64,000 nt of DNA from Clostridiales bacterium (GTDB taxonomy: Bacteria; Bacillota; Clostridia; Lutisporales; Lutisporaceae), in NCBI GenBank assembly GCA_012521375.1, contig JAAYMO010000109.1:1291-65290 (forward strand), in the 5' to 3' direction. A program made the translations under genes and the position numbers. Below, piece by piece: positions 7,027 through 10,690 of the stretch. Every line of letters begins with the position of its first letter. Within the stretch, counting starts at the first letter, position 1. A model generated the notes under the pieces. The model had not been told where the DNA came from, did no database searches, and worked only from the letters and a program-made list of their open reading frames with translations.

Positions 7027-8832
7027 TTATTCTATTGCCAATATCTTTAGTTTTTCATCTGTCGGGACACCCTCTTCATCCCAGCCTCTTATTTGATAAT
7101 ATTCTTTAAGCATTGTATCAAGTTGAGTTACTAAGCCTTTTGCAGGGCCAGATGGCATAGGTTCTTTAAGCAATCTATCAGGGAGTTTATCATCTGCTTT
7201 TGTAAAGCCTGCTTCAAGATTGAAGAGTTTCTCCAGATTCCAAATCCTTTCTCCTGCTTGTAAGATTTCTTCATCAGTGAGATCAATGCCTGTAGCAGTT
7301 CTCAACATTTCTGAAATTTCCGGCAGGCCTATTCCGAAGGTTGTGAATAGACATATACCAGCAGAGTCTACAACTGCTGTGAGATCTTGGAATGTTTTGA
7401 GCCAAGAGGCTTTTTCATCAGTTACAAAAGGATCAAGTTTTTCTGGAATTCCGAGTATCTCTGGGGAAGTTAAATATCCTCTTACGTGACATGCACCTCT
7501 ATTAGATGTGGCATATTCTAGACCCATGCCTTGCAGGCATCTTCCATCGTAGGCAGGCATCTCCTGTTTTTTAACGGTCATGGAAAGTTCTGGATGGCCA
7601 TAATGCTCTGCCATTCTATAGGAGCCCATAGCCATTATATCTCCAAATCCTTCCCTTAAGCCTGTCATCCTTGTAAATTCAACTATACCTTCGTCATCTC
7701 CAAAAGGAAGGTCTCTTCCTAATTCTTTGCTAGTCAATATACCTTTTTCATACATTTCCATAGCACATGCTATAGTTGCTCCCATGGTTATGGGATCAAT
7801 ACCAAGTTCGTTGCATATAAAATTAGCTTTGCTTATGGCTTCTAAATTTCTTACTCCGCAATCTGCACCAAAGGCCCAGCCGGCTTCATACTCAGGCCCT
7901 TCACCAAAGCTTTTGAATTTGCCTTCAGCTATTCTTGTGACTCTTCCACATCCAATATTGCATCCAAAGCAGCCTTTGTTTCTTACCAGATATTTTTCTG
8001 TTAAGGTTTCACCGGAGGTTTCATCAGCATATTCAAATACACCGCCATCTCTCCAGTTTCTTGTTGGAAGTCCACCACTTTGATTTAAGATGTTTACAAG
8101 TATCTGAGTACCATAAGTAGGCAAGCCTTCTCCAGTAACCGGATGGTTTTTCAGCATATCTCTGCTTTTTTTGCATATCTCCAAGAACTCTTTTGGTTTA
8201 GCAACTTCCACGGATTTTGAGCCTTTTACCACAATAGCTTTAAGATTTTTTGAACCCATTACGGCACCAAGCCCAGATCTTCCTGCTGCTCTGTGTCTAT
8301 CATTCATGACTGTCGCAAACAATACCAGTTTTTCACCACCGGGTCCTATGCAGGCAACCTTAGCATCTTCTCCTGCTTCTTCAATAAGCATATCTGTGGT
8401 TTCGAATACATTTTTTCCCCAAAGATGTGCTGCATCTCTTAATTCAACTTCATCATCGTTGATATATAGGTAAACCGGCTTTTCTGATTTTCCTTCAAAT
8501 ATTATTCCATCATATCCCGCATACTTAAGCTCAGGTCCAAAATGGCCGCCGGAGTTGGAGGCACCTATGGTTCCAGTCAATGGTGCTTTTGCTATTACTT
8601 CATATCTTCCGCTGGAAGTGGCTAAAGTACCAGTAAGTGGCCCTGTCATAAATATGAGTTTATTATCAGGACTGAAAGGCTCAACCTTTGGATCAACTTC
8701 CTTCATGAAATATCTTGTACCCAAACCTCTGGCACCTATATAATTTTTTGCATCTTCCAGATTGAGAGGTTCTTTCTTTATGGTATTATCTGTAAGATTG
8801 ACTCTGAGAAGTGTTCCTGTATAACCCAACAT
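7027..8832 (-). CDS. aor: Tungsten-dependent aldehyde:ferredoxin oxidoreductase (AOR/WOR family) catalytic subunit
   Basis: [77 protein letters not shown]; 601 aa. Confidence 0.95.
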
Positions 8833-9311
8833 TATTCATACACCTCCCCAAACAAATCTTTGAATTTTTCACCTATTTTCATTTTTTTGTTTAGATTTGC
8901 AGGAGTAGCTTCTTTATACTGTATTGCTCCTGAAGGACAAAGTTCTGCACATTGTGGATTTCCTCCACACAGGTCACACTTGATTAATTTCTTTTCTTTG
9001 GAACTGAATGTGATGTTACCAAGGGGACATGCGCTTATGCACATCTTACAACCGATGCATCTCTGATCTTCGATTATGACTGCATTATTTTCATCTCTTG
9101 CGATTGCTCCCACCGGACACACTTTCATACAGGAAGGATCTTCACATTGCATGCACATTATGGGTACTGATATGGCAGCCTCATCATAGGCTAGTACAGT
9201 TACAGCAGCTTGTTTTGGATTAAATTCTTCCATTCTATTGAAGGAGCAAATCAATTCACAGGTTCTGCAGCCGATACACTTTTCTGGTGCAATCATTAAC
9301 ACCTTGCTCAT
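8832..9311 (-). CDS. 4x[4Fe-4S] electron-transfer small subunit of AOR
   Basis: [42 protein letters not shown]...CAELCP; TAATG overlap with aor. ORF-track start 9455 lies in the riboswitch, so the ATG at 9311 was chosen. Confidence 0.9.
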
Positions 9312-9371
9312 TATTTGCTGGACGCCTGATGACGCCAGCCTCACCTCCTTCTTTATATATTTATTATTTAA

Positions 9372-9418
9372 TAATAAAAGTCCATCTGTTTTGGCAATAA
9401 TTGCTCTACAGATGGACT
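9372..9418 (-). terminator. Intrinsic terminator of the aor leader, overlapping riboswitch P1
   Basis: Transcript AGTCCATCTGT-18 nt-ACAGATGGACT-TTTATTA; the first 4 nt belong to the P1 3' strand. Confidence 0.75.
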
Positions 9419-9500
9419 CCTTTGCACAATGGCAGGTATGGGCATTTCTACCCATGCCCTATCGTTCCAAGTCCTTTTCGGGCTCCTTGGAATCGGAGTC
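9415..9500 (-). ncRNA. Moco/Tuco (Wco) riboswitch no. 1, upstream of the aor operon
   Basis: Transcript GACTCC-GAT-TCCAAG..CTTGGA-ACGAT-AGGGCATGGGT-AGAAAT-GCCCATACCT-GCCATTGTGCAAA-GGAGTC; P1, P2, P4 with AGAAAT loop and P5 like the Moco RNA motif; no P3. Confidence 0.85.
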
Positions 9501-9850
9501 TATATATAGTTAAAAGTCATACATTTAATTAACTATTCTACATATATTTGCCAAGTCCTTTTAATATGACTAAAATATTTGAAAATTTTTTAAATTTTAT
9601 TTACTTATATTTAAATTTATTAAATGAGAAGGTAAACTAAATATGTATATGAAAAATATGTAGATTTTATAAAAATATTGTGGCAAAATGTAAGCTGTAT
9701 AATTTATGATTTAATAAATCAAGTTTTGATGAAAAGGGATAAGCATATAAAAGGTATTGGTGTGGACATGCTTATAACATTTGAAATGAGAAATGCAAAT
9801 ATTAAATAAAATATTTAAGCTTATTCAGTGAGGTATTAGGAGGTCATAGT

Positions 9851-10690
9851 ATGGGTAAAAAAATATGTATGGTTATTTTTTTATTATTGCTATTATTAAA
9901 AGTTCCATATGTTTATGCCGAAGCAAATGAGGTTTCAAAACTATCGGATATAACAGCGGAGCAGAAAGTAGTAGTACTTATGTATCATCATGTATTGCCA
10001 AATCAGCTCAATAAGTATTATAGAAACAATTCTGCCGTAATTTCATTAGAGGCTTTTAAAGAACAAATGAAATATTTATATGATAATGATTATAATATAA
10101 TTACTATCAGAGAATTAGAGGAATTTATATATTACAAAAGACCGTTACATAAATCAAAAAATAACACCAGTGTATTAATAACGTTTGATGATGGCTATCT
10201 CAGCAATTATATTTGGGCCTATCCAGTACTCAAAAGCTATGGGTTTAAAGCCACAGTATTTTCTATCACATCCCATATTCCAAAAAAAAGTATAGAAGTA
10301 ATAAATCCTGATAAGCTTGAAAAAATCAGCTACGAACAGATGGTAGCCACAAGGGATGTATTCGATTACGAAAGCCATAGCCATGCATTTCATAAAAAAG
10401 ATCATAATAATGTTTCATATATAGTATCCATGAACAAAGATGAAGTAATGGAAGACTTGCAGATATCAATAAATAAGCTTGGCTCTTCTAAATACTTTGC
10501 TTATCCATATGGAGAATATAATGAAGAAACCATAGATGTCCTGGAAATATTAGGTTTCAAGCTGGCTTTCACAACTAAACCAGGATATATCAACCATGAT
10601 AATCATCCATACCATCTGACTAGATTTGCCATAACCCCTTTCACTTCATTAGAACAATTTAAGAAGATAATGAATCTAAATGACTTATGA
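9851..10690 (+). CDS. Exported polysaccharide deacetylase (CE4/NodB, PgaB/IcaB-like)
   Basis: Signal peptide; VLMYHH, LITFDDGY, ESHSHAFH, FAYPYG motifs. Confidence 0.9.
   Translation: MGKKICMVIFLLLLLLKVPYVYAEANEVSKLSDITAEQKVVVLMYHHVLPNQLNKYYRNNSAVISLEAFKEQMKYLYDNDYNIITIRELEEFIYYKRPLHKSKNNTSVLITFDDGYLSNYIWAYPVLKSYGFKATVFSITSHIPKKSIEVINPDKLEKISYEQMVATRDVFDYESHSHAFHKKDHNNVSYIVSMNKDEVMEDLQISINKLGSSKYFAYPYGEYNEETIDVLEILGFKLAFTTKPGYINHDNHPYHLTRFAITPFTSLEQFKKIMNLNDL

Follow-up and report, generated by a model that had tools for sequence, protein, structure and literature searches.

A Moco/Wco-class aptamer sharing nucleotides with an intrinsic terminator: a probable transcriptional ON riboswitch of a tungsten aldehyde:ferredoxin oxidoreductase operon

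The tungsten enzyme operon and its leader

We analysed a window of 64,000 nucleotides from a Clostridiales bacterium (GCA_012521375.1, contig JAAYMO010000109.1, positions 1,291 to 65,290); positions without a contig handle below are those of the window. A Pfam search identified six genes on the same strand downstream of the target leader (Table 1), and they are ordered as in the electron-bifurcating WOR1 cluster of Eubacterium limosum, wor1SLXABC (PMC11725836). The neighbouring gene upstream (9851-10690) is transcribed divergently, and the terminator of the target leader therefore serves no other gene. The Shine-Dalgarno (SD) sequence AAGGAGG lies about 30-32 nt before the ferredoxin start, with a small hairpin between them (9350-9309, minus strand). 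Most relatives share this order of SD, hairpin and start, with a TTG start codon, and the beginning of the ferredoxin, (M)SK[VI]LMI[AS]PEKC, is conserved in 16 relatives. The spacer hairpin may bring the SD and the ferredoxin start codon together.

Table 1. Features of the target leader and its operon (window positions)
Feature	Position	Strand	Basis or detail
Candidate sigma-70-type promoter, TTAAAA, 18 nt, TAGAAT	9535..9564	-	9/12 consensus matches; ~25 nt upstream of aptamer
Moco/Wco riboswitch aptamer, subtype without P3	9401..9510	-	RF01055, 53.6 bits, gathering score 36, E 5e-10, model positions 1-135
P1 5' strand, GACUCC	9495..9500	-	six Watson-Crick pairs with 9420-9415
P1 3' strand, GGAGUC	9415..9420	-	9418-9415 (optionally 9419) double as terminator base
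Intrinsic terminator hairpin	9378..9419	-	-19.9 kcal/mol alone; 11-12 bp; in the leader's minimum-energy fold
Terminator 5' arm, AGUCCAUCUGU	9418-9408	-	direct reading
Terminator loop, 18 nt with small inner stem	9407-9390	-	
Terminator 3' arm, ACAGAUGGACU	9389-9379	-	direct reading
U-rich tract, UUUAUUAUU	9370..9378	-	directly 3' of hairpin
4Fe-4S polyferredoxin, WorS-like	8832..9350, including SD AAGGAGG 9350-9344; ATG 9311	-	Fer4 families
Tungsten-type aldehyde:ferredoxin oxidoreductase (AOR), 601 aa, WorL-like	7027..8832	-	AFOR_N 1e-86, AFOR_C 3e-155
ThiS/MoaD-like protein	6909-6616	-	Pfam
NuoE-like 2Fe-2S protein	6590-6138	-	Pfam
NuoF-like FMN/Fe-S protein	6154-4340	-	Pfam
2Fe-2S + 4Fe-4S protein	4343-3597	-	Pfam

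The Rfam search revealed four RF01055 aptamers in the window, with the P3 positions deleted in all four, and the target aptamer scored 53.6 bits again when the whole genome was searched. Helices P1, P2, P4 and P5 and the junctions CCGA, AGGG, CCU.CC and AAAGG are present in the target, and the P4 loop is a GNRA loop (GAAA). Unconstrained folding of the aptamer alone recovered P1, P2 and P4. In the Rfam alignment P2 is shortened, with 14 nt replacing 25 model positions, and the CCUAA/AUGG receptor is gone; a P2 tetraloop receptor for the P4 GAAA loop was sought in the RF01055 alignment of the target and was not present. According to Regulski et al. (PMC2408646), the P2 receptor correlates with the P4 GAAA loop and two members have GAAA loops without a receptor, so its loss in the target is a variable feature that does not exclude membership. 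By score and architecture the target leader is a genuine RF01055 member, despite the missing P2 receptor.

The P3-less subtype has been linked to the tungsten cofactor (Regulski et al., PMC2408646). The window aptamers lack P3 and have an AOR and a tungstate-type ABC transporter (tup) downstream, and from the missing stem and this gene context we infer that the ligand is the tungsten cofactor (Tuco/Wco). Promoter-like sites in the region are no more numerous than expected from shuffled sequence, and the TTAAAA/TAGAAT pair is a candidate only.

Nucleotides shared by P1 and the terminator

The initial annotation had proposed that the 5' arm of the terminator takes up the last four nucleotides of the P1 3' strand, and direct reading confirmed this: A-G-U-C at 9418-9415 is common to P1 and the terminator, and an optional G9419-U9378 pair adds a fifth common base. 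Because both structures need bases 9418-9415, P1 and the terminator are mutually exclusive; that exclusivity, also claimed earlier, is borne out by the fact that each of these bases pairs in either fold. The target has the features of control by terminator disruption, namely a stable hairpin and U-tract after the aptamer, with the P1 3' strand shared with the terminator 5' arm, an arrangement that calls for no separate antiterminator. The U-tract at 9378-9370 is interrupted by an A. The leader folded far better than its shuffles (z = -5.3), none of 200 being as good. A simple consensus terminator scanner made no call on the hairpin, since its 18-nt loop exceeds the scanner's limit of 8 nt.

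The two folds of the full target leader are nearly balanced, with the terminator state at -46.6 kcal/mol and the P1-enforced state at -42.7 kcal/mol (gap 3.9 kcal/mol). The P1-enforced fold comprises the complete aptamer and a truncated hairpin of 7 bp (-10.4 kcal/mol) that stands 4 nt away from the U-tract. Four unpaired bases between a hairpin and its U-tract should abolish intrinsic termination. When a bonus of -6 kcal/mol was placed on P1 as an arbitrary stand-in for the ligand, the probability of the basal terminator pairs decreased from 0.998 to 0.13. In co-transcriptional snapshots, the P1 fold remained lowest in energy until synthesis of the final few bases of the 3' arm was complete, and a weak outer extension of P1 covered a further part of the terminator 5' arm.

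Aptamers and terminators in the same genome and in other genomes

The whole-genome search identified eight RF01055 elements in the assembly. Three precede AOR operons, namely the target (contig C138), C80:5837-5951 and C145:6830-6939, and all three have the overlap design; the terminator stem of C145 (AGCCGCAGU/ACUGUGGCU) differs from that of the target. With the arbitrary P1 bonus, the terminator probability in the three AOR leaders decreased from 0.88-0.99 to 0.10 or less. The remaining five elements stand before the tup transporter (with moeA and moaA behind it), an S-layer protein carrying sulfite-oxidase-fold domains, a phosphodiesterase/ECF-type cluster (regulated at the RBS), an SLH protein together with an ABC system, and an [FeFe]-hydrogenase, and a separate terminator was found in four of the five. 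In three of these four the arbitrary bonus raised the terminator probability (HydA: 0.09 to 0.78; C69: 0.04 to 0.99; tup: 0.46 to 1.0).

For two of these leaders, its riboswitches 2 and 4, the initial annotation had described a separate terminator with the P1 3' strand serving as antiterminator. The separate terminators stood, beginning 36 nt after P1 in the tup leader (aptamer 44363-44482, terminator near 44510-44530) and at +17 behind the aptamer at 33893-33769, and the modelled response of tup agrees with the description. At 33893-33769 the P1 3' strand and the terminator 5' arm are complementary, and the equilibrium probability of the terminator was 0.98 with or without a stabilised P1, so the antiterminator half of the claim has the complementarity behind it and not the equilibrium model. 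As modelled, the AOR leaders and the uptake leaders of this one genome would respond in opposite directions.

These layouts bear on the idea that the target is an OFF switch like E. coli moaA, in which the cofactor would favour termination, for example through a bound aptamer that requires no more than the two inner P1 pairs and is stacked against the terminator. Regulski et al. 2008 (PMC2408646) described RBS and terminator platforms, with the E. coli moaABCDE leader as an OFF switch, as the initial annotation had correctly stated; it is the sole experimentally tested member, and their survey, which includes elements before cofactor-using enzymes, describes no activating platform. The E. limosum wor1 and tup leaders have likewise been described with one scheme (PMC11725836). 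However, the target terminator reaches its U-tract only if P1 gives up four to five of its six core bases, and in the free state the terminator has no antiterminator partner. A clearly different layout, of the classical OFF kind, is seen in the uptake leaders of this genome, and an enzyme repressed by its own cofactor would make no physiological sense here. An OFF switch at the target is, in our assessment, extremely improbable.

The genome carries eight AOR-family genes in all. No aptamer was detected upstream of five distant AOR paralogues (C198, C23, C70, C305 and C138:71080-73119; 27-36% identity to the target AOR). The hydrogenase element is an OFF-type P3-less aptamer with a separate terminator (C161:941-1059, L002) before an [FeFe]-hydrogenase with a NuoG-like N-terminus, with 12 further loci in relatives; a review of tandem riboswitches lists a ferredoxin hydrogenase among Wco-linked genes. 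The window also contains a T-box leader (39665-39878, plus strand, 135 bits) upstream of an ORF of 1034 aa (39921-43025), presumably an aminoacyl-tRNA synthetase.

We searched 61 related genomes and found 106 RF01055 elements in 38 of them. All were fetched, P1 and the best hairpin-plus-U-tract were located in each, and the downstream genes were named by tblastn. All 20 AOR-linked aptamers of the relatives had a terminator (-14 to -30 kcal/mol) starting at -1 to +3 of the P1 3' strand, and these came from 13 genomes, four genera and four AOR paralogue groups, including three tandem pairs; because the relatives are kin, the 20 cases stand for a handful of lineages and not for 20 independent events. 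Among the 86 non-AOR aptamers (uptake, biosynthesis and others), an overlapping terminator was limited to one ambiguous case. On inspection, five of the six automatic overlap calls in non-AOR leaders were rejected as artefacts: either P1 had been misplaced, or the supposed U-tract was a run of U in the loop of the true terminator further downstream. The ambiguous case (G030:C253:6661-6772, L087) has a hairpin over P1 of -11.8 kcal/mol with several G-U pairs, and is followed after 400 nt by a gene for a His-rich CobW/HypB-type GTPase.

In an alignment of 22 homologous leaders, 90.9% of the terminator cells were paired, compared with at most 52.7% in slid controls. Eleven of the 12 terminator pairs change on both sides across these leaders, and none of 500 shuffles reached any of the measures. 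The terminator pairs derived from P1 covary too (U-A/U-G/C-G and C-G/U-A/U-G/A-U), and a U-rich tract lies at the same place in 22 of 22 leaders. The design is both conserved and covarying.

Tandem ON-type aptamers, each with its own overlapping terminator, precede the ferredoxin-AOR operon in L086 (G025:C109), L091 (G018:C35) and L092 (G014:C7). The CCGA junction of the second copy is damaged in L086 and L091 (Rfam 39 and 32 bits) and intact in L092 (37.8 bits).

The AOR-linked aptamers have the lowest Rfam scores of the family (32-65 bits). The low scores and the damaged second copies would fit an attenuator that is constitutive or controlled otherwise, terminating regardless of ligand, with the aptamer a decaying relic or a controller of mRNA stability or translation through the downstream SD-hairpin; the terminator is, moreover, the equilibrium fold when no ligand bonus is given. 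Against such an attenuator, conservation of the aptamer core and P1 extends over four genera and four groups of paralogues, the terminator still overlaps P1 where its stem sequence is completely different, and a gap of 3.9 kcal/mol is typical of a switch, unlike a fixed terminator. We judge this explanation very unlikely.

The P5 pair is G-C in 93% of the AOR-linked aptamers versus 1% elsewhere, CCGAU takes the place of CCGAG at the first junction in 93% versus 20% elsewhere, and ACG replaces CCG in the second junction. By the P5 swap and the CCGAU and ACG junctions, the AOR-linked aptamers are a recognisable subgroup. The distinctness of this subgroup and the altered or lost P2 receptor raise the question of whether an ON switch here answers to another effector, such as metal-free molybdopterin, Moco or a bis-pterin form, or has an affinity threshold different from that of the uptake-linked aptamers. 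Direct Moco/Wco binding to RF01055 RNA could not be demonstrated in vitro, and for the P3-less type no ligand has ever been directly demonstrated (Regulski et al., PMC2408646). The P5 change is, however, a compensated base-pair swap, and the C145 leader retains U-A there; the conserved core (CCGA, AGGG, GAAA loop, CCU.CC, AAAGG) is intact, and the differences may merely reflect common descent of the leaders with their operons. A different effector or threshold seems unlikely to us.

In the relative G008 (contig C5; L061:307-1896, minus strand), an OFF-type aptamer with a terminator at +71 precedes a gene for an NAD-type aldehyde dehydrogenase of 529 aa (Aldedh, 8e-139). This suggests an isozyme swap, in which a cofactor-free aldehyde dehydrogenase is made when the tungsten cofactor is short. 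B12 riboswitches repress B12-independent isozymes, and the arrangement in G008 mirrors them.

Outside the family, we inspected 80 diverse AOR loci and found an aptamer at nine. In two of them, from the MAGs of a Clostridium sp. (L105) and a member of Tissierellia (L106), the terminator overlaps P1 and its stem is unrelated in sequence. A further five leaders, from other phyla (L119, L121, L123, L141 and L151), are without a terminator and end 1-50 nt before the start codon, the one from Cloacimonadota reaching the start. L119, L121, L141 and L151 are AOR leaders of Thermodesulfobacteriota, Bacillota, Cloacimonadota and Spirochaetaceae; in the free-state fold of these four the SD pairs with the conserved CCUCCC, and a stabilised P1 frees the SD in three of them (not in L141). 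This pairing was not counted as evidence, since any SD complements the conserved segment. These four AOR leaders may be translational ON switches.

A phylum sample of 60 AOR genes from 60 genomes gave an aptamer within 1.3 kb upstream in three (3/60): L202, from another family, has the ON design, again with a stem of unrelated sequence, L191 is without a terminator, and L199 actually heads a transporter operon. In five aptamer-rich genomes, 2 of 21 AOR-family genes were aptamer-linked, with a separate terminator in L184 and no terminator in L185. The gene at L184 (G106:C4:23796-23915) encodes an AOR-family paralogue of 589 aa in another family, behind a canonical 84-bit aptamer; a separate terminator coexisting with the aptamer there is an exception to the ON pattern. 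With aptamers at 3/60 and 2/21 AOR genes and the exception of L184, the idea that the overlap design is universal for AOR genes was rejected. The design recurs, and it is neither universal nor the sole coupling of AOR genes to RF01055.

Probable polarity of the switch and its possible meaning for tungsten enzymes

The ON reading given in the initial annotation gained support from the exclusive pairing, the near balance of the two folds, the opposite modelled responses within one genome, the contrast between 20 of 20 AOR-linked aptamers and one ambiguous case among 86 others, and the covariation. We infer the polarity, and with it the actual effect on transcription, from structure and comparison, both of which support it well. 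Points that speak against it are the A within the U-tract, the E. limosum wor1 leader with its different platform and steady transcription (below), the separate terminator of L184 and the five AOR-family genes of this genome without an aptamer. On this basis, the target leader is probably a transcriptional ON riboswitch of the Moco/Wco class.

The proposed mechanism would run as follows. RNA polymerase would make the aptamer first, and P1 (GACUCC/GGAGUC), together with the weak outer extension, would close it. Binding of the tungsten cofactor would lock P1, and when the 3' arm emerged about 30 nt later, the upper 7 bp alone could form. Four unpaired bases would then part the stem from the U-tract, termination would fail, and the six-gene WOR1-type operon would be transcribed. 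Without the cofactor, branch migration would let the 3' arm take the place of the P1 5' strand, the complete hairpin of 11-12 bp would adjoin the U-tract, and transcription would stop.

Like the E. coli moaABCDE leader, the target has P1, P2, P4 with a GAAA loop, P5 and the conserved junctions. Unlike that leader, a translational OFF switch with P1 over the RBS, its P1 3' strand forms the base of a terminator, and the polarity would be reversed. A Tuco riboswitch (RF01055) has been reported upstream of E. limosum wor1SLXABC and read as an RBS sequestor on the tupABC scheme; limiting tungsten left wor1 transcription unchanged, and the authors gave no polarity for the wor1 leader (PNAS 2024, PMC11725836). 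The target resembles E. limosum wor1 in aptamer subtype and operon type (polyferredoxin, AOR, MoaD-like protein and NuoE/NuoF-like bifurcating module), whereas its platform is an intrinsic terminator overlapping P1 instead of an RBS sequestor with an antisequestor.

In Bacillus subtilis, the pbuE (ydhL) adenine riboswitch (Mandal and Breaker 2004; reference 9 of PMC9481103) reportedly activates its gene by terminator disruption. The target leader is predicted to work in the same manner: its terminator 5' arm is built from the 3' side of P1, and bound ligand would block strand invasion and give read-through. The aptamer and ligand are unrelated to those of pbuE, and pbuE turns on an efflux pump on metabolite excess, whereas the target would turn on an apoenzyme on its cofactor.

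No activating Moco/Wco riboswitch was described in the literature searched, which included Regulski 2008, Weinberg 2007, Sun 2013, the Breaker-laboratory reviews of 2017 and 2022, a tandem-riboswitch review and TaRTLEt; within that literature, ON wiring of the class is apparently undescribed. In Sporomusa ovata, tenfold more tungstate increased the aor1/2 transcripts 30-fold and the aor4 transcripts 14-fold, whereas aor3 showed no induction, and no mechanism was proposed (PMC4973070). By analogy, this response may be taken as a physiological precedent for the ON reading.

A wider scheme, which we offer tentatively and consider rather doubtful, would make a cofactor-availability circuit of one aptamer class acting with both polarities in one cell. 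The AOR-linked ON aptamers would be a tuned subclass (P5 swap, junction changes and loss of the P2 receptor) with a different threshold or ligand form, so that the enzyme operons would be switched on at a cofactor level other than that at which the uptake, salvage, hydrogenase and cofactor-free isozyme genes are switched off.

To our knowledge, almost all known coenzyme riboswitches are OFF switches that exert feedback on synthesis and uptake. If the target leader is an ON switch, a cofactor riboswitch would license transcription of the apoenzyme, a feed-forward use of the same sensor, and a costly Fe-S-rich tungsten enzyme would be built only when its cofactor exists. Such control would account for the tungstate-induced aor transcription reported without a mechanism, and the naturally matched pair of ON and OFF leaders would allow the study of one aptamer coupled to opposite outputs. 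It would also help to predict the production of tungsten enzymes in anaerobes, including gut and syngas-fermenting species.
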